The notes below the pieces were generated by a model, which searched no databases, was not told the origin of the DNA, and saw nothing but the letters and a program-made list of their open reading frames with translations. A stretch of 64,000 nucleotides of DNA from a bacterium (GTDB taxonomy: Bacteria; Patescibacteriota; Minisyncoccia; 2-02-FULL-40-12; IGHO2-12-FULL-4): assembly GCA_030647955.1 (NCBI GenBank), contig JAUSIQ010000031.1:2920-66919 (forward strand), given 5' to 3'. Below are positions 1,326 to 52,937 of the stretch, in pieces (position 1 is the first letter of the stretch; every line of letters starts with the position of its first letter). Made by a program: the position numbers and the translations under genes.

Positions 1326-2774
1326 ATGAAGATCCCTAAAGAAATTGAATTAATTCTCGAAGAACTTCAAGAGCATAGCTTTGAAGCTTTTATCGTGGGT
1401 GGATGCGTCCGCGATCTTTTGATGGGCAAAGCCCCGAAAGATTGGGACGTAACCACCAATGCTCGCCCCGAAGAGATCCAAAAAATATTTCCCGACAGCT
1501 TCTATGCAAACGAATTCGGCACTGTGGGTATCAAAACCGATCACGCAGAGAAAAGTCTTCAAGTGGTCGAGACCACCACTTATCGTACCGAATCCAGCTA
1601 CTCTGATCAGCGCCATCCTGATTCCATCAAATTCGCTACTACCTTAGAAGAAGACCTAAAGCGTCGCGACTTCACTATCAACGCCTTGGCCATGGACAAA
1701 GAGGGCAAGGTCATTGATTTGTTTTCCGGACAAGAAGACTTGAAAAAAAAGATTATTCGCGCCGTGGGCGATCCCCAGGAAAGATTTTCCGAGGACGCTC
1801 TGCGCATGATTCGCGCCATCCGCTTTGCCACGGTATTGGAATTTGAGATCGAAGCGGCCACTCTCGAAGCTATCAAAAAAAACGCAGGATTGATGGAAAA
1901 AATTTCCCAAGAGCGAATTCGTGACGAACTTGTTAAAACCATCTCCGCCGACCAGGCCAGTAGGGGAGTAGAGTTGTTACGCGAGACCAACCTTATGCCC
2001 TTCGTTATTCCCGAGCTTTTAGAAGGCGTTGATGTCGGACAGAACCTCCACCATATTTATACCGTATGGGAGCACAACGTGCGTGCTTTGCAGTATGCCG
2101 CCGACAAGCAATATTCCGTCGCCGTGCGCCTGGCTTCGTTATTGCACGATGTTGGCAAGCCCCGTTCCAAGAGAGGAGAGGGTAAGTACTCTACTTTTTA
2201 CGGACACGATATGATCGGCGCCAAAATGAGCATCAAGATTTTAGCGCGCCTGAAATTTTCCAAAGATCTCTCTGAAAAAATTACCAAACTGGTGCGTTGG
2301 CATCTCTTCTATTATAACGTGGGGGAAGTGACCGAAAGTTCGGTGCGCCGCTTGGTAGCCAATATCGGCAAAGAGAACGTTGAAGACCTCGTTAAAGTAC
2401 GGGAGGCGGACCGGATCGGCTCCGGCACACCCAAAGCCCATCCCTACAAACTTCGCCACCTCCAGTTTATGATCGACAAAGTAGCCCGCGACCCTATCTC
2501 TCCCAAAATGCTAAAGCTGAACGGTAATGAGCTCATGACCCTCTTGGGCTTGCCACCCGGCCCAAAAATTGGGATGATTTTAGCTGCCCTAATGGAAGAG
2601 GTTTTGGACGATCCCGCCAAGAATACTAGAGAGTTCCTGGAAAATCGTAGTCGAGAGTTATCAACCTTATCGGAAAAGGAGTTAACGGATTTGGCCCAAA
2701 AGGGTAAAAGTAAGTTGGCGGAGGAAGAAGAAAAAGCCATTAAGAAAATCAAACAGAAACATTACGTTGAGTAA
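1326..2774 (+). CDS. cca: CCA-adding tRNA nucleotidyltransferase with C-terminal HD domain
   Basis: N-terminal GGCVRDLLMG...DWDVTT pol-beta nucleotidyltransferase head; HD motif LLHDVGKP; 482 aa. It sits beside tRNAs that lack an encoded CCA. Confidence 0.85.
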   Translation: MKIPKEIELILEELQEHSFEAFIVGGCVRDLLMGKAPKDWDVTTNARPEEIQKIFPDSFYANEFGTVGIKTDHAEKSLQVVETTTYRTESSYSDQRHPDSIKFATTLEEDLKRRDFTINALAMDKEGKVIDLFSGQEDLKKKIIRAVGDPQERFSEDALRMIRAIRFATVLEFEIEAATLEAIKKNAGLMEKISQERIRDELVKTISADQASRGVELLRETNLMPFVIPELLEGVDVGQNLHHIYTVWEHNVRALQYAADKQYSVAVRLASLLHDVGKPRSKRGEGKYSTFYGHDMIGAKMSIKILARLKFSKDLSEKITKLVRWHLFYYNVGEVTESSVRRLVANIGKENVEDLVKVREADRIGSGTPKAHPYKLRHLQFMIDKVARDPISPKMLKLNGNELMTLLGLPPGPKIGMILAALMEEVLDDPAKNTREFLENRSRELSTLSEKELTDLAQKGKSKLAEEEEKAIKKIKQKHYVE

Positions 2775-2904: not shown

Positions 2905-3210
2905 CTGAATGAAATGAAGGAGGAGTACAGCAAGCCAACAATTTGGCTTGCGTTGGGAGGAGAAGGGCAAGTCTATGTTTTTTTCAAAAACAGACTTGCC
3001 CCGGCCCGCAGGGGACCCCAGTACCCCGACATATATAAAAGAAAGGACCTTCATAGGCCCTTTCTTTTATATTAGTGAAGCTGGGAGTCGAAGGGTATCG
3101 AGAAAAAGTAAACAGTTTTACTTTTTTGAGAACCCCGGCCCTGGGGGAGAAAATTTCGATGTGCAGCAGGCACCAGAAATTTTCGGAGGAAGGGGACTCC
3201 CAGTACCTCC
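2905..3210 (+). repeat. tRNA-Pro-linked insert with two reiterated copies of the tRNA 3' end and a conserved ~125-nt structured module (3085-3210)
   Basis: CCCAGTACCCCGAC (tRNA 2892-2905) recurs at 3017-3030. GACTCCCAGTACC (2888-2900) recurs at 3195-3207. The module 3085-3210 is about 85% identical to 5643-5772 and contains hairpins GAAAAAGTAAAC/GTTTTACTTTTTT and GAAAATTTCGAT/ACCAGAAATTTTC. Confidence 0.6.
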
Positions 3211-3345
3211 CCAAATTCCCTATATTCCATACCCCATTTTTTGTTCATAAGACGCGTTTATAATTTAATTAAAAAAGCCACAGCCTAACCCAAGAAAAAA
3301 GGTAATTAGTACAGAAAGCCCTCATATTGACTTTTTGCTCAAAAA

Positions 3346-5510: not shown

Positions 5511-5581
5511 GGGCTCGTAGTTCAGTGGTAAAACGCCGCATTCGCATTGCGGAGGCGCGGGTTCGATTCCCGCCGAGTCCA
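5511..5581 (+). tRNA. tRNA-Ala (anticodon CGC), no encoded CCA
   Basis: Acceptor GGGCUCG/CGAGUCC with G3:U70, anticodon stem CCGCA/UGCGG, loop UUCGCAU, T-arm GCGGG-UUCGAUU-CCCGC. Confidence 0.8.
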
Positions 5582-5772
5582 CAAATGAAACTTCGGGATC
5601 ACTTTCTGAAGTGGTCTAGAGGTTTCATGCTGTACCCGCCGAGAATCGAAGGGTATTGAGAAAAAGTGAACAGTTTCACTTTTTCGAGAACCCGGGCTCT
5701 GGAGGAGAAAATTTCGATATGCCAAAGGTATCAGAAATTTTCGGAGGAAGAGGATTCCCGCCGAGTCCACCA
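5582..5772 (+). repeat. tRNA-Ala-linked insert: partial copy of tRNA 3' end (5634-5642), conserved ~125-nt module (5643-5752), then a 20-nt copy of the tRNA 3' end with CCA (5753-5772)
   Basis: GATTCCCGCCGAGTCCA of tRNA 5565-5581 is repeated as GATTCCCGCCGAGTCCACCA at 5753-5772. The module is homologous to 3085-3210 and carries hairpins GAAAAAGTGAAC/GTTTCACTTTTTC and GAAAATTTCGAT/ATCAGAAATTTTC. Confidence 0.6.
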
Positions 5773-5830
5773 ATACAAATGATTCGAGCTTGGTACAATA
5801 AACACACTTAATATTATTAATTCCGCCATT

Positions 5831-40432: not shown

Positions 40433-40506
40433 GATCCCGTTAGAGGTTTCGCTCGTGACCAAGTCGCGAGTCCGTAGGACCTCGGCGGGGCTACCTCTAA
40501 CGGGAT
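40433..40506. repeat. hairpin element with terminal inverted repeats GATCCCGTTAGAG / CTCTAACGGGAT (family copy 2)
   Basis: Termini 40433-40445 and 40495-40506. Core differs from copy 1 but is again GC-rich with internal hairpins. Lies between the nusA stop (40428) and the tig ATG (40505). Confidence 0.6.
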
Positions 40507-41788
40507 GGAGATTAATTTAAAACGGGGAAAAAACTCTGAAGCGGAGCTGAAAGTCGAGCTCACGCAAGAAGACCTCAAACAATACATTAAAAAAGCCGGC
40601 GAAGAAGTGGCGGCTTCAGTGGCCATGGACGGTTTTCGAGCCGGCAAGGTTCCTTTGGATGTGGTCAGAAAGAAAGTGGGGGATGAGAAGATTTTGGAGG
40701 TGGCCATGGATTTGGCTATTAAAGAGAGTTTTTTTCAAGCTATTAAAAAGGAAAAAGTAGATATTATTTCTTCTTCGGATTTGAAGGTGATCGATAACAC
40801 CGCGGAGAAGTTGAAATACGAAGTGAAGATTATTCTTTTTCCGGAGGTGAAATTGGGAGAGTATAAGAATTTAGGAATGAGTCTTAAGCCGGTCAGCGTC
40901 AGCGAAGAAGAAGTGCAGGATACTTTAAAATATATTCAAAAAACTCGAGCGGAGTATAAGGAAGTAGAAACTCCGGCCGAAAAAGATCACCGGCTCGAAA
41001 TCGATTTCGAAGTCAAAGATAAAGGAGCGGTGATCGACGGAGGAAAGAGTGAGAATCATCCTGTGGTCCTGGGGGAAGGCAATTTTATTCCTGGCTTTGA
41101 GGATCACTTGGTGGGGATGAAAAAAGGAGAAACGAAAAACTTTTCTCTGGAGGTGCCGGGGGATTATTATCAAAAAAGTGTGGCTGGCAAGAAACTCGAT
41201 TTCTTGGTAACTATTAAGACTATTAAAGGAGCAATTCTGCCGGAGTTAACGGACGATTTTGCGAAGAGCCTAGGAAAGTTTGAGTCAGTGGAGGATTTAA
41301 AAAAGAATGTTAGTCGCGGTTTGCAAAGCGAAAGAGATCAGAAAGAGCGAGACCGTGTACGTTTGTTGATTCTCGATAAAGTTAATGAAAAAACCGAGAT
41401 GGAAGTTCCGGATAAAATGGTGGAAGAGCAGCTGGATATCATGGTGAGTAATTTCGATCAGAACCTCCACGCCAGGGGATTGGAGCTAAGTCTTTATCTA
41501 ACTCAAATCAGCAAGACTCAAGATGAGTTGCGCAAAGAATGGCGAGAGCGAGCCGTGAAACAGATTCGACAAGGATTAATTATGCGGGCTATCAGCAAAG
41601 CAGAAGAAATCAAGGTGGGCGAAGAAGAGGTGGCTCAAGCCGTCGGGGCGCTGTTAAGTCGCTATGCGGGAGCGGAAGAACTACAAGCTAAGGTTGATCC
41701 GGAAGAGCTAAAAAACAGAGCAAAGGAATCTCTACTTAACGAAAAGGTATTTGATTATCTCGAGAAAGAGAATATCAAAGAAAACTAA
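40505..41788 (+). CDS. tig: trigger factor
   Basis: Ribosome-binding signature GFRAGKVP, FKBP-like middle domain; 427 aa. Confidence 0.85.
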   Translation: MEINLKRGKNSEAELKVELTQEDLKQYIKKAGEEVAASVAMDGFRAGKVPLDVVRKKVGDEKILEVAMDLAIKESFFQAIKKEKVDIISSSDLKVIDNTAEKLKYEVKIILFPEVKLGEYKNLGMSLKPVSVSEEEVQDTLKYIQKTRAEYKEVETPAEKDHRLEIDFEVKDKGAVIDGGKSENHPVVLGEGNFIPGFEDHLVGMKKGETKNFSLEVPGDYYQKSVAGKKLDFLVTIKTIKGAILPELTDDFAKSLGKFESVEDLKKNVSRGLQSERDQKERDRVRLLILDKVNEKTEMEVPDKMVEEQLDIMVSNFDQNLHARGLELSLYLTQISKTQDELRKEWRERAVKQIRQGLIMRAISKAEEIKVGEEEVAQAVGALLSRYAGAEELQAKVDPEELKNRAKESLLNEKVFDYLEKENIKEN

Positions 41789-41805
41789 CACAAACAAAAA
41801 AGCAC

Positions 41806-41834
41806 TCCATGGAGTGCTTTTTTGTTTGTGTCTT
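41806..41834. terminator. rho-independent terminator
   Basis: AAAAAAGCACTCCATGGAGTGCTTTTTTG. A second perfect 15-bp hairpin AGGCCTTTCGCAAAA...TTTTGCGAAAGGCCT follows at ~41834-41885. Confidence 0.7.
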
Positions 41835-42075
41835 AGGCCTTTCGCAAAACATTCCTTACGAAAAAATATTTTGCGAAAGGCCTATCTTTTTGTGGTTACC
41901 GTCATGCCGGTGCCCACCAACATTCTTGCGAATATTAACAGTTTTCTCTTGCCAGCTAAGTTTGGTAGATGTAATATAAAATATCACATCGCTTTTTCGG
42001 TGAGGAAAAAGTATTAGAAGGAAGAAAACGAACACGATAGTAGCCTGGGTATAATTATATCACTTTAATCTTTGT

Positions 42076-43776: not shown

Positions 43777-44016
43777 ATGTATAATATGGGCAGCTCTTTT
43801 TTTGGAGGCCCTATGAGTAACAAGCTTATTGTCAAAGCCATAGATGACCTGACTTTAGATGAGATGGTAGCCATGCTTAGAGAGATTAAGATGACTTCGG
43901 AGGAAGAAGAGGCGCAGAGGATTAGTTTTGCTTACGGTAATGTAAAATTGTCCAATCCTGCTATAACTTTGGAAATGGTTATAGAAGCGGCCAGAAAACA
44001 CCCTCGAAAGAAGTAG
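43777..44016 (+). CDS. small hypothetical protein
   Basis: 79-aa ORF, no motif. Confidence 0.3.
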   Translation: MYNMGSSFFGGPMSNKLIVKAIDDLTLDEMVAMLREIKMTSEEEEAQRISFAYGNVKLSNPAITLEMVIEAARKHPRKK

Positions 44017-44037
44017 ACCCGCAAGGGTCTTTTGTTT

Positions 44038-44226
44038 TGTCCGCCCACTAGGAGTTGGTCTCGGCTCTCGTTCGCCCGTCGGCGAACTCGGCCTAACCAC
44101 CAGCTCGCCATGTCATCTACTGACGACATATGGCTCCGCTGTTCAACTCCTAACGCCAGCCAAGTAGTTGGCTGGCTGTGGTCTGTTAAACATAAAGAGA
44201 CCCTTCGGCCTCTTTATGTTTACATG
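44038..44226 (-). repeat. tRNA-Lys-linked insert ending in a reiterated tRNA 3' end
   Basis: CCGCCCACTAGGAGTTG at 44040-44056 repeats the tRNA-Lys 3' end (44228-44245). An inverted partial copy TTCAACTCCTAACG lies at ~44146-44160. GC-rich hairpins. Motif CTCGGCCTAACCACCAGC is shared with the tRNA-Ile insert. Confidence 0.55.
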
Positions 44227-44299
44227 TCCGCCCACTAGGAGTTGAACCTAGAACCTTATCCTTAAGAGGGATCTGCTCTGCCAATTGAGCTATGGGCGG
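44227..44299 (-). tRNA. tRNA-Lys (anticodon CUU), no encoded CCA
   Basis: Acceptor CCGCCCA/UGGGCGG, anticodon loop CUCUUAA, T-arm CUAGG-UUCAACU-CCUAG. Confidence 0.75.
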
Positions 44300-44311: not shown

Positions 44312-44386
44312 TGGTGCCCTCGGAGGGAATCGAACCCCCATTGCTGGTTCCGAAGACCAGTACTTTATCCGTTAAGCTACGAGGGC
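44312..44386 (-). tRNA. tRNA-Arg (anticodon UCG), CCA encoded
   Basis: Acceptor GCCCUCG/CGAGGGC, anticodon stem CUGGU/ACCAG, loop CUUCGGA, T-loop UUCGAUU, ACCA 3' end. Confidence 0.8.
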
Positions 44387-44815
44387 ATCTTTGCTTTTAA
44401 ACCATTTAAAGTCTTTAGCTGTTTTTCTTCTGTGGCAGTTTGCGCACCTTACATCGCATTTGTCTACTTCTTCTTTTATCTTATATAATTGGTAGCGTCC
44501 TGTGACTAAATGCGACACTGCTTTGAATTTATCTCTTTGGTGATCAAATTCCAAAACTCTAACATCCGCTTCTTTGCAATCAACACAGGGGTGTCTAGAT
44601 AGATAGTCTAGAATAAAGCTTTGCGCCGCCAGTCTGTTCTTAAGATTTCTTTTACTGGTTTTCTGCAAATAGTAATTTCTGTTGTTATAGTAATGCTTTT
44701 TAATTAATGTACGAGCACATTCTTTGCATTGATAATGGCGCAGACCCTCGGCCTTTATTTTAAAGCTGAACTGATCTAGGGGCTTTTTCTTCTTGCATCT
44801 CGTGCATTGCTTCAT
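44372..44815 (-). CDS. HNH endonuclease (free-standing, homing-endonuclease-like)
   Basis: Zinc-ribbon CxxC pairs plus HNH core CVDCKEADVRVLEFDHQ...CANCHRRKT; 147 aa; the 3' end overlaps the 5' end of tRNA-Arg by ~15 nt. Confidence 0.7.
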   Translation of the reverse strand: MKQCTRCKKKKPLDQFSFKIKAEGLRHYQCKECARTLIKKHYYNNRNYYLQKTSKRNLKNRLAAQSFILDYLSRHPCVDCKEADVRVLEFDHQRDKFKAVSHLVTGRYQLYKIKEEVDKCDVRCANCHRRKTAKDFKWFKSKDALVA

Positions 44816-45927: not shown

Positions 45928-46965
45928 ATGAAAATATTTAGTAGGACTTCAGCAGTTGTGACGGCTGTAGTTTTTGCGTTCGGTTTGGCTGGGCTGCTCA
46001 TAGCTAGAGCGGCAAGCACGCCATCTCTCGGGACAGCGGCAACTTATGGTGTTCTTGCCAGTACCTACACCAATACGACGGCGGGGACCACGGTTAATGG
46101 AGATATTGGATTCACTACTGGACCGGCAGTTACTCCCTTAGGTGTGCATACCAATTACGGATCTGGCGCCCCTTACGCAACAGCTGGCACGGATCAGGGC
46201 AGTGCCTTATCTGCTCTGGCTTCCCAGCCATGCACGTTCACTTTTGCGTCCGGAGCAATTAATCTCTCTACTGACACCACTCACGGTCCAGCTGGGATTT
46301 ATACGCCTGGAGTGTATTGTACAACAGGCGCTGCATCCATCGGAACAGCGGGAATTACTCTCTCCGGTGGGGGGACGTATATCTTCAGAGTAGATGGTGC
46401 ACTTACTACGGTAGCTAATTCTGTAGTCACGTTAGCCGGTGGTGCAGCAGCTTGTGATGTATTTTGGACTCCAGCCGCGGCCACCACGCTTGGTGCCAAT
46501 TCCACTTTTGTGGGAACTAACATTGATGCCGCAGGTATTACTATTGGTAGTACCGTAGCGTGGACGGGAAGAGCGTTGGCATTCGGCGGAACGGTCACAT
46601 CTGATGCCGATACTATTACAGTGCCGGCGTGTGCGGCCCCCACTCCGACTCCGACTCCCACGCCTACTCCCACGCCTACACCAACCCCTACGCCCACACC
46701 GACACCCAGTGTAGCCCCGACTCCTACTCCCAGCTTAACTCCTACTCCCACTCCTACGCTCAGCGTAACACCCACGCCGACTCCTCTTGCTCCGACTATT
46801 ACACCTGCGCCTAGCGTATCGATTACGCCATCGTCTGCTCCAGCACTGCCGAATGCGGGAATTGCTCCTGATGAGAAAAATACAACCTGGAGTATTATTA
46901 CGCTGGCTGGGATATTTGCGGTTGCGATCTTCTTCTACCTTGCTCGAAGAAAACAAATAATCTAG
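45928..46965 (+). CDS. cell-surface protein with DUF3494/ice-binding-like beta-solenoid domain, PT linker and C-terminal sorting signal
   Basis: [34 protein letters not shown] resembles the ice-binding-like family. Long (PT)n linker. C-terminal LPNAG, hydrophobic stretch, RRKQ tail. A sortase gene follows. Confidence 0.55.
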
Positions 46966-47678: not shown

Positions 47679-47723
47679 CTTCTGCGGAGAACGGGAGTCC
47701 TTCTCTTTCTATATTTTTCTACC

Positions 47724-47746
47724 AAAACCGCCCATAGGGCGGTTTT
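47724..47746. terminator. bidirectional terminator
   Basis: AAAACCGCCCATAGGGCGGTTTT. Confidence 0.7.
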
Positions 47747-47877
47747 GGGTTATTCGGAGCGGATAACGGGAGTCGAAACCGTCTCTGGTCCTTTGCAAGG
47801 ACCCATAATACCGATATACGATATCCGCGAATTATTCTTGATTATATGACAAAACGAGAATAAATCAAGAATAATAT

Positions 47878-48531
47878 TTAAGCCAATTCGGCCTTGGTTA
47901 GCTCCAGCCATTTGAGCATCTTTTCTTTCAACTGACGACTGTGGACGTAAATAGTACAGATCCCAAAAGATTTTTGTTTAGTACGGGCTTTGTTCGATAC
48001 AACCACAGATTTTCTAAAGAGAGGACTGGGTATGCCGGTCGCTTTGCTCCAGAGGTTCTTATGGACCGTTTCGGCTAAACCGGGGTAGAGGTAAAGCCGG
48101 CAAGAGATTTTGTCAGCCTTTACGGTTTTGGATAGAAAAGAAAAGAACAGTTTTGTCATATCAAAATCGTTGGAAGAAAAACGGACTACCGAACTCTCCG
48201 GGCTTAAATCGCCCTGGCTCCAGTAAAGAATGATGGCAGGCAAGAATAGGGGATTTTTCTGAAGGATCGTAAATTCTTCTTCGGCCTGGGTTTGGGCGGA
48301 TTGTCGCCATGCCTGCCAGCGCTGGCGATTAACCGCGGCCATTTTTTTTATCTTTTGCGCGGCACCGACGCGAGAGGGAGTACTGAGGGAATCACGAACC
48401 AGTATCGACCAGGGCTGGTCTCTAAACCAACCACTCAGGGTGGCTTTGGGGATACCTAGTTTTTTAGTGATCTCCGCGTAGCTCTTACCTTGTTGACGTA
48501 AGGCCACGGCTTTTTCACGGTCATTTCGCAT
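47878..48531 (-). CDS. HTH-domain protein, possibly transposase- or mobile-element-derived
   Basis: N-terminal helix-turn-helix KAVALRQQGKSYAEITKKLGIPKATLSGW typical of IS630/IS30-type transposase DNA-binding domains; no DDE motif; 217 aa; beside a tRNA cluster. Confidence 0.4.
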   Translation of the reverse strand: MRNDREKAVALRQQGKSYAEITKKLGIPKATLSGWFRDQPWSILVRDSLSTPSRVGAAQKIKKMAAVNRQRWQAWRQSAQTQAEEEFTILQKNPLFLPAIILYWSQGDLSPESSVVRFSSNDFDMTKLFFSFLSKTVKADKISCRLYLYPGLAETVHKNLWSKATGIPSPLFRKSVVVSNKARTKQKSFGICTIYVHSRQLKEKMLKWLELTKAELA

Positions 48532-50501: not shown

Positions 50502-50574
50502 TGGGCGCTACAGGAGTCGAACCTGTGACTTCTTCCGTGTAAAGGAAGCACTCTGGCCTCTGAGTTAAGCGCCC
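50502..50574 (-). tRNA. tRNA-Val (anticodon UAC)
   Basis: Acceptor GGGCGCU/AGCGCCC, anticodon stem CUUCC/GGAAG, loop UUUACAC, T-arm ACAGG-UUCGACU-CCUGU. Confidence 0.75.
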
Positions 50575-50803
50575 TTTCGACTATATATTAATGTAATGAG
50601 TACACCCGTAAAGTTAATCAAGAATCCGACAAAGATCGTAAAGTGGTTGCCGGTAAGTAATCCTTCGGGGGTTTCCAGGCCAATGTTTAAGTGATGCAGA
50701 ATGTCTAAAACCAAGCCGACTGCCTCGACCGCTGTACCGAATAGACTAATCTTGATTCCTTTTTGGAAGGTATTCATTTGTTTAATTGTTATTAAGCTTT
50801 TTT

Positions 50804-50853
50804 ATCCAAGACCAAAAGCAAACTATTGCTTTTGGTGGGCGCGCTTGGATTCG
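50804..50853. repeat. 50-bp direct repeat carrying a copy of the tRNA-Ile 3' end plus downstream hairpin (second copy 50944-50993)
   Basis: ATCCAAGACCAAAAGCAAACTATTGCTTTTGGTGGGCGCGCTTGGATTCG is identical at both positions. It includes the 21 nt of tRNA-Ile from T-loop to CCA and the hairpin CCAAAAGCAA/TTGCTTTTGG. The ~90-bp segment between copies is GC-rich. Confidence 0.65.
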
Positions 50854-50972
50854 GTTTCGCCTCTCGCCTCGCCAGGCGCTCGGCTCGGGCTAACCACCGC
50901 TTCGTGATTCCGCCTGCTGGCGAAATATCACTCCGGCGTTCTCATCCAAGACCAAAAGCAAACTATTGCTTT

Positions 50973-51049
50973 TGGTGGGCGCGCTTGGATTCGAACCAAG
51001 GACCGCCGAGGTATAAGCTCGGTGCTCTAACCGACTGAGCTACGCGCCC
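50973..51049 (-). tRNA. tRNA-Ile (anticodon UAU), CCA encoded
   Basis: Acceptor GGGCGCG/CGCGCCC, anticodon stem CCGAG/CUCGG, loop CUUAUAC, T-arm CUUGG-UUCGAAU-CCAAG, ACCA end. Confidence 0.7.
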
Positions 51050-51089: not shown

Positions 51090-52937
51090 TTACGCTTTTA
51101 GTAAAGCGTAGAACTCTTTTTGTTCCAGGGTCTCTTTTTTAATAAGCTCTTGAGCGATGCGATGTAAGATGTCCATCTTTTTAGTGAGGACCGCTTTTGC
51201 CGAAGTCACGGCTTTGGTGATTAGTTTCTTGATTTCGTTATCGATTTTAAGAGCGATCTCTTCAGAATAGTTTTTTTGGCTGGATATTTCTTTGCCTAGA
51301 AAGACCATCTCTTCTTTCTCGCCAAAAGTAATTGGCCCCAGAAGATCAGACATACCATATTGCGTGATCATTTTGCGCGCAATGTCCGAAGCCACTTTTA
51401 AATCATTAGAAGCGCCGGTGGTCATATCTTTGAAGATAATTCTTTCGGCCGTATATCCGCCCAACAAGACCGCCAGCTCTGCTTCGAACTCGGCGCGTGA
51501 TTTTAAGTGCTTGTCCTCGCTAGGTAATTTTAAAGTGTAACCGCCGGCTCGTCCGCGAGAGATAATCGAGATTTTGTGCACCGGATCGGAGTGGGGAAGA
51601 GAGGCGGCTACGAGAGCATGACCGGCTTCGTGATAAGCGGTAATTTCTTTTTCTTTTTTAGAGAGGGCGTGACTGCGGCGCTCCGGTCCCAAGATCACTT
51701 TTTCGATAGATAATAGAAGGTTGTCCTGATTGATGGTGGTTTGGTTTAATCGAGCGGCTAAAATAGCTGCTTCGTTAATAAGGTTGGCCAAATCCGCTCC
51801 GGAAAATCCGGAAGTTCTTTCGGCGACCACGCGTAGATTAATGTCTTTGGCTTGAGGCTTGTCCTGAATATGCAATTGCAGAATCTTCTCGCGATCGTTC
51901 AAAGAGGGATCGTCGAGAATTATGCGGCGATCAAAACGGCCGGGGCGTAACAAAGCGGGGTCTAGGATATCAGGACGGTTGGTGGCAGCCATGACGATGG
52001 TGGCGGCATCCGTATCAAAGCCATCCATTTCCACTAGAATCTGGTTTAAAGTCTGTTCTCTTTCGTCATGCCCGCCACCTAAACCGGCGCCACGGTGACG
52101 ACCGACGGCATCGATTTCGTCAATGAAGATAATCGAAGGAGAGGTCTTTTTGGCTAACTCGAAAGTGTCACGGACGCGATTAGCGCCGACACCGACAAAC
52201 ATTTCTACGAACTCCGAACCAGAGACGAAATAGAAAGGAACTTCCGCTTCGTTCGCGACGGCTTTGGCCAACAAAGTTTTTCCGGTTCCGGGGGGACCAA
52301 TGAGTAAAATACCACGCGGAATCTTTGCTCCCAGTTTGTGAAACTTTTTAGGATCTTTCAGGAATTCCACGACTTCTTCAATCTCCTGTTTGGATTCCTC
52401 TAGTCCAGCCACATCTTTAAAAGTTACTTTTTTCTTACCATTATTTCCGGCTAATTTCGCGCGGGATTTTCCAAAACTAAAGGCCTGCATTGAACCCTGT
52501 TTGGCTTGGCGAAACATAAACCAGAAAATCAGAACGAAAAATAGAAAAGGAGCGAGGATTGGTAGAATACCTACGAGGAGTGAACCCCAGCCGTTGTCGT
52601 CTTGGATTGCTACTCGAATAGTATTGAGCTTTTCTGGGTTAGCACCAAGATTGATCAGGGTTTCCAAGGCAGAAACGCCGGGTTCTTTTTTGGCTTCAAA
52701 AGCCGCGTTCTCGGTTTTAATTTCGAGCATGTCTCCTTTGACCAAGATTTCTTTGGCTTCACCGCTGTTAACTTTTTCTACTACTTGAGAGAGCGGGATG
52801 TCACTGGGATTAGACATGGGCTGGCCAACAAAAGTCAGTAGGCCGGAAAGCCCCAGTAAAATCACAAAGACGATGAGAATATATTTGAATAAAGAATTCA
52901 TACATAACAATTTAACACGGAATCCGAAAACTAGCAA
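51090..52937 (-). CDS. ftsH: ATP-dependent zinc metalloprotease FtsH
   Basis: Walker [17 protein letters not shown] region, zinc site HEAGHAL; 615 aa with N-terminal TMs. Confidence 0.9.

Follow-up and report, generated by a model that had tools for sequence, protein, structure and literature searches.

The exact 50-nt repeat at tRNA-Ile(UAU) and the GC-rich 90-mer between its two copies probably represent one copy of a family of non-coding, structured miniature elements (about 60–190 nt), located at the 3′ ends of tRNA genes in a Yanofskybacteria-like CPR genome and probably non-autonomous and mobilised in trans. The Ile copy is probably the youngest member of the family. Inserts of this type were found behind at least five of the 12 tRNA genes in the window, by which we mean the whole 64,000-nt (64 kb) stretch of DNA analysed; they follow the genes for tRNA-Ile, tRNA-Lys, tRNA-Pro (two in tandem), tRNA-Ala and tRNA-Cys. 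tRNA genes are classic landing pads for large mobile DNA, and here small inserts occupy 5 out of 12 of them within 64 kb of a streamlined CPR genome. No such family is described in the databases or literature that we searched; the combination of a tRNA gene with a displaced piece of itself is already a known signature.

The repeat at tRNA-Ile(UAU)

An earlier note on this DNA had reported a perfect 50-bp direct repeat that duplicates the 3′ end of tRNA-Ile, and three readings (sequence reading, a repeat search and direct string comparison) all found the two copies identical at 50 of 50 positions (Table 1). The identity extends by zero further bases on either side, with five of the next eight bases matching on the low-coordinate side (GAGAACGC versus AAAAAAGC), and a chance origin of such an exact repeat within 64 kb is excluded (blastn E about 1e-24). 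The described composition also held when the tRNA was placed with ARAGORN and Rfam. Each copy consists of the last 21 nt of tRNA-Ile, from C56 of the T-loop to the encoded CCA (CGAATCCAAGCGCGCCCACCA), followed by 29 nt, which hold a hairpin of about 10 bp (CCAAAAGCAA/TTGCTTTTGG). The T-arm of this tRNA reads CTTGG TTCGAAT CCAAG. The arrangement has the att-like geometry that had been proposed for it, with an intact tRNA gene followed by a displaced 3′ copy in the same orientation, whose left edge lies in the T-loop (PMC4383910).

The 90-nt spacer has a GC content of 64.4 %, compared with a window mean of 44.5 % (SD 7.7 %, 90-nt windows), and was rightly called GC-rich. Other GC-rich 90-nt windows at 46.6 kb, 9.0 kb and 5.3 kb apparently lie in coding sequence and were dismissed as unrelated. 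A 70-aa ORF is found on the distal side of the element. The window also holds dnaA and dnaN.

Inserts behind other tRNA genes

Table 1. Features of the tRNA-Ile(UAU) locus and of the inserts behind the other tRNA genes (positions in the window)
Feature	Position	Strand	Description
tRNA-Ile(UAU)	50973..51049	minus	intact, encoded CCA; ARAGORN; Rfam tRNA 74.3 bits
Proximal copy of the 50-nt repeat	50944..50993	minus	tRNA nt 56-76 (21 nt), hairpin, TCTTGGAT
Hairpin of the Ile element	50952..50975	minus	CCAAAAGCAATAGTTTGCTTTTGG; 5′ arm opens with the CCA of the tRNA; 1 nt before the T-arm-complementary segment
Anti-T segment of the Ile element	50939..50950	minus	CTTGGATGAGAA
GC-rich 90-mer	50854..50943	minus	body of the Ile element, subfamily A; hairpin domains P2 and P3, core GGTGGTTAGCCCGAG
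Distal copy of the 50-nt repeat	50804..50853	minus	tRNA 3′ fragment 50833-50853, hairpin 50812-50835, TCTTGGAT
Lys element	44038..44225	minus	behind tRNA-Lys(CUU) 44226-44299; hairpins 44188-44221 and 44155-44176, anti-T 44142-44153, structured core 44048-44153; last 20 nt of the tRNA (44225-44244) exactly repeated 187 nt downstream at 44038-44057
Terminator after the Lys element	44015-44030		
Pro-1 element	2930..3030	plus	behind tRNA-Pro(CGG) 2833-2905; hairpin 2930-2951, anti-T 2953-2964, single long hairpin, tRNA-tail copy 3014-3030 (17/18 nt)
Pro-2 element	3081..3212	plus	subfamily B, in tandem after Pro-1 and terminator 3038-3067; anti-T 3081-3092; degenerate tail copy 3195-3212 (15/18 nt)
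Ala element	5639..5770	plus	subfamily B, behind tRNA-Ala(CGC) 5511-5582; ends in an 18-nt exact tail copy 5753-5770 (= 5565-5582)
Cys element	47684..47746	minus	minimal version, behind tRNA-Cys(GCA) 47756-47828; terminator hairpin 47724-47746, purine-rich stretch, tail copy 47684-47699 (15/16 nt)

All inserts lie on the tRNA strand, downstream of their own tRNA. The full elements consist, in this order, of a hairpin, a segment complementary to the T-stem and T-loop (anti-T), two hairpin domains giving a predicted three-way junction, and a copy of the local tRNA. The left edge of every tail copy is in the T-loop, at nt 55/56 (Ile, Lys) or 56/57 (Pro-1, Pro-2, Ala, Cys), and the copies end 1–2 nt past the discriminator, with the exception of Ile, which alone extends 29 nt beyond the CCA. 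Their matches to the tRNA are graded (50/50, 20/20, 18/18, 17/18, 15/16 and 15/18), and in the tandem pair at tRNA-Pro the outer copy is the more degenerate one. The anti-T of the Ile element, predicted to be the 5′ strand of the closing helix P1, matches the reverse complement of the T-loop and the T-stem 3′ strand at 10 of 12 nt, and that of Pro-2 matches it exactly (12/12). Together with the retained T-loop/T-stem fragment, the anti-T makes an inverted repeat of 5–10 bp, which has the sequence of the local tRNA and not of the element family. Unlike simple C-O-B′ attR sites, the distal junctions are without the 5′ half of the T-stem beside the T-loop.

The hairpin within the Ile repeat is equivalent in position to the hairpins that directly precede the anti-T inside the Lys (44155-44176) and Pro-1 elements, and it is therefore probably part of the element. 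The earlier note had taken the perfect identity of the repeat as the sign of a recent event; the identity is real, but gene conversion could also explain it. The 50 nt would then be a recent gene-conversion or replication-slippage tract in an older element and not a fresh insertion, running from the tRNA tail into the displaced fragment and through the hairpin, and overwriting 29 nt of the original flank. Such a tract, which we regard as rather unlikely, would account for the observation that only the Ile repeat extends more than 1–2 nt past the discriminator and that it covers exactly the hairpin and anti-T that are internal in Lys and Pro-1. The matching bases past the repeat could be microhomology at the tract end, and the exact tail copies at Lys and in the relative L003 suggest ongoing homogenisation despite the diverged bodies. 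However, a second insertion into a site with a solo hairpin and anti-T yields an identical sequence, and whether conversion took place affects the dating of the repeat but not the interpretation of the element itself. The extra 29 nt point to one of two histories, a gene-conversion tract or a second event at a site that was occupied before.

Homology and conserved fold

The search for the 90-mer elsewhere, proposed in the earlier note, recovered a diverged homologue behind tRNA-Lys, 6.7 kb away, and no copy in the collections scanned with one 22-mer. The Ile 90-mer and the Lys body (subfamily A) are identical at 60 of 90 positions (z = 15.6), a value equalled by 0 of 1000 shuffles, and the Pro-2 and Ala bodies (subfamily B) at 88 of 102 positions (z = 48.7). 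In subfamily A, all 34 pairs of the fold are kept in both copies, 10 of them with two-sided changes; none of 500 shuffles was as good and slid controls were 31–43 % paired. In subfamily B, all 41 pairs are kept, with five double and three wobble changes and none broken. Each of these pair counts comes from an alignment of two sequences only and the covariation evidence is thin, but within these alignments the fold is kept through compensatory substitutions, as looked for in a structured RNA or single-stranded DNA element. Of the options offered earlier, these results favour a mini-element, as the 90-mer has a homologue behind another tRNA and its fold is preserved.

The tRNA-sense strand folds 3–10 kcal/mol better than the antisense strand in four of four cores, and the pair tables contain 11 G-U cells and zero A-C cells. 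However, the strand specificity of the fold is only moderately supported, because the antisense strands of subfamily B have equal or better z-scores. Covariance models of the two subfamilies each weakly detected members of the other, always behind tRNAs, and no convincing copy was found away from tRNAs in the window. The best non-tRNA matches fell at 41768-41899 on both strands (E 0.005–0.01), in a palindromic double hairpin that we read as a terminator. The covariance models R1 and R2 had no members elsewhere in the window, and R1 had none among 85 loci; to judge from sequence, the elements are lineage-specific in their primary sequences.

Small CPR genomes may lose DNA easily, and each locus might be a passive scar in which attL and attR survive from a full-size integrative element (prophage or island) with a deleted interior. 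Islands do have as their canonical signature an intact tRNA gene and a 3′ fragment that has the same orientation and starts in the T-loop (PMC4383910), and graded fragment quality, from 50/50 down to 15/18, is expected for events of differing age. However, independent deletions would not leave a hairpin, an anti-T, two hairpin domains and a tail copy five times, nor would they be expected to produce a closing helix between both ends. Neutral scars would also not show 15 double changes and 0 broken pairs, and the sequences that we scanned against viral, genome and metagenome collections led to no related full-length element. We consider scars very unlikely; the remnant with nearly all cargo lost that the earlier note had envisaged is disfavoured by the three-way-junction architecture shared at five tRNAs and by the pairing-preserving substitutions.

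A mis-joined or duplicated segment in the assembly is hardly credible as the source of the repeat. The sequence does come from a 112-kb contig of a metagenome-assembled genome, and contigs of relatives often stop near tRNA-Ile. However, four other tRNA loci on the contig have the same architecture with different repeat lengths and sequences, the 90-mer is unique in the window and its homologue is diverged, not identical, and compensatory substitutions would not be produced by an artefact. Moreover, an independent Logan assembly of the same organism (L086) matches the window, visibly from the 3′ end of the HAD gene into tRNA-Ala; it stops within that tRNA and reaches no element. The organism is also present in SRR13727527.

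Empty and occupied sites in relatives

Several relatives (given here by our labels) have the orthologous tRNA genes with no element behind them. In L088 and L095, tRNA-Lys is directly followed by an A-run and a hairpin. Behind tRNA-Ile, the orthologue of the 70-aa ORF comes after 4 nt in L095/L096, and tRNA-Val after 22–23 nt in L003/L091. The tRNA-Lys of L003 has its own element, with an anti-T and a tail copy that fit its own, different T-arm. The empty-site relatives are distant, with FtsH 68–78 % identical (75–78 % in L088 and L095), and loss is therefore inseparable from gain. A scan of genome contigs with FtsH yielded relatives of at most 68 % identity, including L003, L008, L056 and L066. 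What was looked for as the mark of a mobile element was found both in the presence and absence of elements at orthologous tRNA-Lys and tRNA-Ile sites and in the homologous bodies at Ile/Lys and Pro/Ala.

We also considered that the insert is not primarily mobile but a resident RNA module that would be co-transcribed with the tRNA and act in cis. By their design, the inserts are predicted to offer two alternative tails for pairing with the 5′ half of the tRNA. If this half paired with the distal tail, the proximal one would be sequestered, and such a 'strand-swap' fold would control 3′ processing, termination or quality control, while the identity of the tails would be kept by selection or gene conversion. 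In predicted minimum-energy folds, the acceptor stems of Ile, Lys, Ala and Pro-1 close with the distal copy, which is 5–15 kcal/mol better than closing with the proximal one; however, nearest-neighbour folding takes no account of tRNA tertiary structure or of the order of folding during transcription. At Lys, L003-Lys, Pro-2 and Ala, the anti-T fits the entire T-loop of the actual tRNA, and in Pro-2, Ala and L003-Lys it does so better than it fits the fragment retained by the element. The sole terminator-like site at the Lys locus comes after the distal fragment, the conserved fold has G-U pairs on the sense strand, and the orthologous tRNA-Lys genes of two genomes both have an element. On the other hand, presence is patchy, as the closer relatives L088 and L095 are without the element at tRNA-Lys and tRNA-Ile and only 5 of the 12 tRNAs in the window have one. 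The homologous bodies at unrelated tRNAs and the decaying outer copy of the tandem at tRNA-Pro imply copying between loci, and no Rfam family matches. We think it unlikely that the inserts are primarily such modules. The two readings are compatible, since a mobile module may also act in RNA, and an element acting in RNA would be a new tRNA-precursor module. If it is mobile, as we favour, it would be a minimal tRNA-targeting element pointing to a further enzyme or mechanism in CPR bacteria.

Database and gene searches

Pfam searches over about 50 ORFs of the window revealed no integrase, transposase, HUH enzyme or reverse transcriptase. Viral contigs gave 0 matches for the 50-mer, the halves of the 90-mer and the cores of subfamilies A and B in mostly exact-match scans, and blastn of the Ile element against phages and plasmids gave only tRNA or chance matches; CPR mobile elements may be missing from these collections. 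A single 22-mer from the 90-mer had 0 matches in genome contigs and metagenome contigs, as did a 24-mer of the hairpin in metagenome contigs. We take the source genome to be absent from the collections scanned in this way. Look-ups of the exact proteins of the 70-aa ORF, a 108-aa ORF and FtsH likewise returned no contig. Within the window, no second copy of the 90-mer exists at up to three mismatches and blastn returned chance matches only. The full-text literature search found such elements nowhere described.

At gathering thresholds, Rfam 15 reported tRNAs only, and with E up to 10 the Ile, Lys, Pro and Ala loci gave weak chance-level matches only; the comparison included self-cleaving ribozymes, group I/II introns, T-box, tmRNA and tRNA-like elements. 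A hammerhead or other ribozyme was suggested by GGAUGAG...CGAAAC in the Ile copy, but this is absent from the Lys homologue and has no Rfam ribozyme match. A second tRNA, minihelix or tRNA-like structure was likewise rejected, as the distal tail is without a 5′ acceptor partner and neither ARAGORN nor Rfam calls anything there.

Possible modes of insertion

In the reading that we prefer, the elements would insert into the region from the T-loop to the 3′ end of tRNA genes and leave a complete tRNA and a displaced tail copy, in the manner of islands that an integrase places in tRNA genes. They would be non-autonomous, with an enzyme encoded elsewhere acting in trans; the enzyme is hypothetical, since Pfam identified no candidate of the kinds named above in the window. 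As the mobiliser, we tentatively propose a tyrosine recombinase that is specific for the T-loop and acts on a small circle. The excised circle would be 140 nt, with the putative junction ...GGCGAAAC/CGAATCC...GGAT/GAGAACG. A classical integrase needs a tRNA-specific tail before integration, which makes the 86%-identical bodies at tRNA-Pro and tRNA-Ala hard to explain. The elements might alternatively arise by target-primed insertion that duplicates the target, or by homologous recombination after DNA uptake, in which the tRNA and its copy would serve as homology arms. In any of these modes, the fold of the tRNA-sense strand may be needed for mobility or for the behaviour of the co-transcript.

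An RNA-guided or recombinase-independent tRNA-homing element, spreading by retro-homing/reverse insertion or by DNA uptake with portable homology arms, seems to us an unlikely variant. A folded transcript or single strand would pair through its 12–13 nt anti-T with the T-loop/T-stem, either in a tRNA gene or in a tRNA precursor, and the element would resemble a giant T-loop 'intron' between two interchangeable tRNA tails. Any tRNA gene could thus be colonised without inactivation.

Comparison with known systems

A displaced fragment next to an intact tRNA gene is the signature of integration into a tRNA gene, and the T-loop is one of three crossover sublocations, the others being the anticodon loop and the junction of the T and acceptor stems (PMC4383910). 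The loci described here share with islands and prophages in tRNA genes (the Islander/Williams 2002 signature) the same-orientation 3′ fragment downstream of an intact tRNA gene, found at Ile, Lys, Pro (two), Ala and Cys, the left edge of the fragment in the T-loop, at nt 55/56 or 56/57, and the tandem accretion with the older copy farther out (PMC4383910). However, the inserts measure 60–190 bp and islands 2–200 kb. No tyrosine integrase or other gene lies between tRNA and fragment, an interval of 60–190 nt having no room for one, and scans with the sequences used here revealed no partner bearing attP. Here, moreover, near-identical bodies serve different tRNAs and the body has a conserved single-strand fold. 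The Islander pipeline rejects candidates that are shorter than 2 kb or lack an integrase, and elements of 100–200 nt would escape detection of this type, which demands an integrase and at least 2 kb (PMC4383910). Such inserts can be mistaken for prophage scars, and around tRNA genes their exact repeats may cause short-read assemblies to fragment or go wrong.

CIMEs, described for relatives of ICESt1/ICESt3 of Streptococcus thermophilus, are cis-mobilisable, integrase-less elements bounded by att sites. The inserts resemble them in that they are probably non-autonomous, lie at the end of a conserved gene between repeats of attL/attR type and may be moved by a recombinase supplied in trans. CIMEs, however, are kilobases long and recognisably derived from a known ICE, whereas the inserts are about 100 nt, have no known parent and use several tRNA targets in this one genome. 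Like MITEs, REP/BIME, Correia and RPE sequences, they are short, non-coding, repeated, strongly folded and probably dependent on an enzyme that they do not themselves encode. In MITEs, the target-site duplications are short and of fixed length and the insertion sites are dispersed, whereas here the duplications are 16–50 nt and always of the adjacent tRNA tail, with all copies behind tRNA genes. Analogies with integron attC, dif and IS91 (GTTC target) gave no convincing consensus match.

Retro-homing elements (group II introns; R2 co-transcripts) pair RNA with a DNA target. By analogy, the inserts have a putative structured RNA, a 12–13 nt target-complementary stretch, target sequence at the 3′ end and one fixed junction, and the length of the duplicated target varies only through the extra 29 nt of the Ile repeat. 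They differ in that they show no intron or ribozyme core by Rfam and no reverse transcriptase in the window. A further difference is that the Lys, Pro and Cys tail copies retain genomic non-CCA bases after the discriminator; these bases and the 29-nt trailer in Ile also led us to reject, at these loci, a retro-copy of a mature tRNA. The distal Ala copy is followed by CCA, which we treat as chance.

The duplicated end of tRNA-Ile

On the minus strand, the locus runs from FtsH through tRNA-Ile(UAU), a hairpin, a GC-rich 90-nt segment (the 90-mer) and a second copy of the last 21 nt of the tRNA with the same hairpin, to a 70-aa ORF and tRNA-Val(UAC). The tRNA-Ile(UAU) call was supported by both ARAGORN and Rfam. 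String comparison and a repeat search confirmed the perfect direct repeat claimed in the earlier note, with identity over exactly 50 nt. From C56 of the T-loop it passes the encoded CCA and takes in a hairpin of about 10 bp and TCTTGGAT, so that the described content of each copy (tRNA 3′ end from T-loop to CCA plus a 10-bp hairpin) also held, as did the GC richness of the spacer (64.4 % in the 90-mer against 44.5 % in the whole window). The identity might stem from gene conversion instead of recent insertion, which we think rather improbable and which bears on age only. Rfam gave no match to the 90-mer.

The 70-aa ORF is hydrophobic, shares 10 nt with tRNA-Val at its stop, and had no match in a Pfam search. 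As an orthologue is conserved behind tRNA-Ile in two relatives (L095 and L096), it is probably a genuine gene for a small membrane protein.

Coordinates of features in the window
Feature	Position	Strand	Remarks
CCA-adding enzyme gene	1326-2774	+	PolyA_pol head and HD domains
Pro-1 element	2930-3030		behind tRNA-Pro; tail copy 17/18
Pro-2 element	3081-3212		behind tRNA-Pro, in tandem with Pro-1; tail copy 15/18
Ala element	5639-5770		behind tRNA-Ala; tail copy 18/18
Distal tRNA-Ala tail copy and CCA	5753-5773		followed by CCA
Trigger-factor gene	40505-41788		
Palindromic double hairpin	41768-41899	both	
Lys tail copy	44038-44057		last 20 nt of tRNA-Lys
tRNA-Lys(CUU)	44226-44299	-	
147-aa ORF	44372-44815	-	no Pfam match
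Ice-binding-like protein gene	45928-46965		
ACN-CCN run	46619-46800	+	
217-aa ORF	47878-48531	-	
70-aa ORF	50565-50777	-	
Ile repeat, distal copy	50804-50853	-	
90-mer	50854-50943	-	
Ile repeat, proximal copy	50944-50993	-	
tRNA-Ile(UAU)	50973-51049	-	
FtsH	51090-52937	-	
561-aa ORF	56531-58216	+	no Pfam match

Related elements behind other tRNA genes

Each tRNA of the window and the fetched loci was checked for a second copy of its own 3′ end. The tail of tRNA-Lys(CUU) is exactly repeated 187 nt downstream. The sequence immediately upstream of this Lys tail copy is homologous to the 90-mer, with identity at 60 of 90 positions (z = 15.6, 1000 shuffles); the reverse-complement control gave no score. 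The search for the 90-mer elsewhere, suggested in the earlier note, recovered no exact or near copy in the window. The common core of both bodies is GGTGGTTAG[C/G]CCGAG. A covariance model of the Ile and Lys copies matched downstream of tRNA-Pro(CGG) and tRNA-Ala(CGC), where the Pro-2 and Ala bodies share 88 of 102 positions (z = 48.7). With a minimal version at tRNA-Cys (tail copy 15/16), elements are present behind five of the 12 tRNA genes of the window. Except for tRNA-Phe, those lacking one directly precede another tRNA or a gene. An assembly artefact is very improbable, as the contig shows the same design at four independent loci.

In the window, the Pro-2/Ala model weakly re-detected Lys and Pro-1 and gave no convincing copy distant from tRNAs. 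Its best other matches, on both strands of a palindromic double hairpin after the trigger-factor gene, look like a bidirectional terminator rather than a family member. The outer copy of the tandem pair at tRNA-Pro is more decayed, an arrangement resembling accretion at an integration hot spot. This tRNA lies 58 nt past the end of the CCA-adding enzyme gene. CCA comes after the Ala tail copy (…GAGTCCACCAAT) and AAAT after the gene itself; the CCA is possibly due to chance, because the Lys, Pro and Cys copies have none.

Shared anatomy and predicted fold

Read in tRNA orientation, the elements often begin with a tetraloop-capped hairpin of 9-10 bp (arms CCAAAAGCA..TGCTTTTGG in Ile, GCCAGCCAA..TTGGCTGGC in Lys and GCAAGCCAA..TTGGCTTGC in Pro-1). 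One nucleotide later comes the anti-T, a pentamer resembling the 5′ strand of the T-stem and, after it, the T-loop in reverse complement; the anti-T matches its own tRNA at 12/12 positions in Pro-2, 11/12 in Lys and 10/12 in both Ala and Ile. In the much diverged Lys element of the relative L003 (FtsH 68 %), the anti-T is exact for a different T-arm, its own. Two hairpin domains, P2 and P3, are predicted to form a three-way junction with P1, in which the anti-T pairs with the distal T-loop/T-stem fragment. After a purine-rich stretch, the tRNA copy starts at nucleotide 56 (Ile, Lys) or 57 (Pro-1, Pro-2, Ala, Cys) and ends 1-2 nt past the discriminator; Ile alone continues for 29 nt. Since the hairpin within the Ile repeat is the positional counterpart of the internal hairpins of the Lys and Pro-1 elements, the best reading of the Ile locus is a tRNA followed by a complete unit of 140 nt and the opening 29 nt of another.

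In the two-sequence alignment of Ile and Lys, both copies retain each of the 34 predicted pairs, and in 10 of these both partners have changed. Such conservation was equalled by none of 500 shuffles, and partner-slid controls were 31-43 % paired. Pro-2 and Ala, likewise two sequences, keep 41/41 pairs with five double and three wobble changes. Judging from these alignments of two sequences each, selection acts on the fold. An explanation as passive scars of large elements is improbable, disfavoured by the compensatory changes and by an architecture repeated across loci; the same evidence speaks against the earlier reading of an attL/attR remnant that had lost its cargo. That the elements are an RNA module resident in the tRNA precursor, a reading that would be compatible with a mobile element, seems unlikely to us.

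The pair tables hold 11 G-U and no A-C cells, and each of the four cores gains 3-10 kcal/mol when folded as the tRNA-sense strand rather than as its complement; hence what folds seems to be the sense strand, either as RNA or as one of the DNA strands. The z-scores of the Pro-2/Ala subfamily do not favour it. When tRNA and element were folded together, the distal tail of Ile, Lys, Ala and Pro-1 was the predicted partner that closes the acceptor stem, with an advantage of 5-15 kcal/mol over the proximal tail, while the anti-T sequesters the proximal T-loop/T-stem. This predicts a 'strand-swap' between the two tails.

Occupied and empty sites in relatives

By its FtsH matches the organism belongs to the CPR bacteria, near Candidatus Yanofskybacteria; the match at 100 % is a 112-kb contig from an NCBI MAG. 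Gene order around FtsH is kept in the relatives. L095 and L096 (FtsH 75 %) have an empty tRNA-Ile site, with the orthologue of the 70-aa ORF starting 4 nt after the tRNA; the site is also empty in L003 and L091, where tRNA-Val(UAC) follows after 22-23 nt. In L088 (78 %) and L095 an A-run and hairpin stand directly behind tRNA-Lys; in the window a trailer of this type sits behind the distal fragment, which is also where the sole terminator-like site of the Lys locus lies. A tRNA followed by its own tail within 300 nt was found in four other Patescibacteria loci (L003 Lys, L008 Val, L056 Ser and L066 Ile). From these occupied and empty sites, the presence of the element is patchy, and sequence comparison indicates that bodies are copied between unrelated tRNAs.

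Other arrangements were also seen. Behind tRNA-Val(GAC), L008 (13178-13330) carries a 5′-truncated tRNA-Val-like pseudogene, then a copy of the variable/T-stem region whose T-loop is split by a 22-nt GC hairpin (TCCGCCAGAGGCGGA...) similar to the P2 hairpin of the Ile 90-mer (TTCGCCAGCAGGCGGAA). L085 (2243-2400; FtsH 83 %) has a tRNA-Ile 5′ half ending at the anticodon loop CTTATA and, 35 nt later, a different tRNA-Ile(UAU), itself complete, between the arms of a perfect 11-bp inverted repeat (CAATATCAATG / CATTGATATTG); this is apparently a rearrangement of another type at this tRNA gene. The short-read contigs of L001, L083, L084, L089, L090 and L096 stop within or a few dozen bases past the ftsH-tRNA-Ile junction; repeats at tRNA ends may break these assemblies.

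Novelty and proposed mobility

An intact tRNA gene with a displaced 3′ fragment and an edge in the T-loop is the signature of tyrosine-integrase islands (PMC4383910), and our elements share it. Unlike those islands, they measure 60-190 bp and have no integrase; the Islander pipeline screens out candidates this short and integrase-less (PMC4383910). Rfam holds no family for them and full-text literature searches found no description. We rate them among the elements targeting tRNA genes.

By Pfam, none of the approximately 50 ORFs of the window, a piece of core chromosome (dnaA, dnaN, gyrA, ruvABC, the cca gene, ftsH), is an integrase, transposase, HUH enzyme or reverse transcriptase. Neither viral contigs nor phage and plasmid BLAST yielded a free form or parent element, nor did genome and metagenome scans with the Ile element. 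We favour, with some reserve, a family of miniature non-autonomous tRNA-end elements moved in trans. The classical attP model cannot easily explain 86 %-identical bodies at both tRNA-Pro and tRNA-Ala; mechanisms copying the tail from the target itself would fit better. Candidates are homologous recombination following DNA uptake and an insertion, staggered or target-primed, whose one fixed cut would lie in the T-loop DNA, which is universally conserved. If the family is indeed mobilised in trans, a T-loop-specific recombinase is the likeliest single engine, a tentative choice. A categorically different mechanism, RNA-guided or recombinase-free homing, is doubtful.

Two small ORFs lie beside tRNA clusters. 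The 147-aa ORF has CxxC pairs and a ...CANCHRRK... motif, HNH-like by eye. The 217-aa ORF, with an orthologue in L003, has an N-terminal HTH that matches the HTH of the Sleeping Beauty transposase below threshold.

Other observations

In the window and most fetched Patescibacteria relatives (L001, L002, L003, L056, L066, L084, L085, L087-L089, L091-L096), tRNA-Ile(UAU) lies downstream of ftsH, usually as direct neighbour and in some relatives a few kb apart. In most bacteria AUA is decoded by a CAU tRNA carrying lysidine; this lineage may thus decode it without TilS. In some relatives FtsH (P0023, P0075) is about 1050 aa long with intein and LAGLIDADG domains, and L095 (1-619) has a gyrA containing an intein. 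The ACN-CCN run, apparently encoding Thr-Pro repeats, lies inside the ice-binding-like protein gene, which is followed by a sortase gene. The 561-aa ORF is the most GC-rich stretch of the window, with 90-nt windows of up to 74 % GC.
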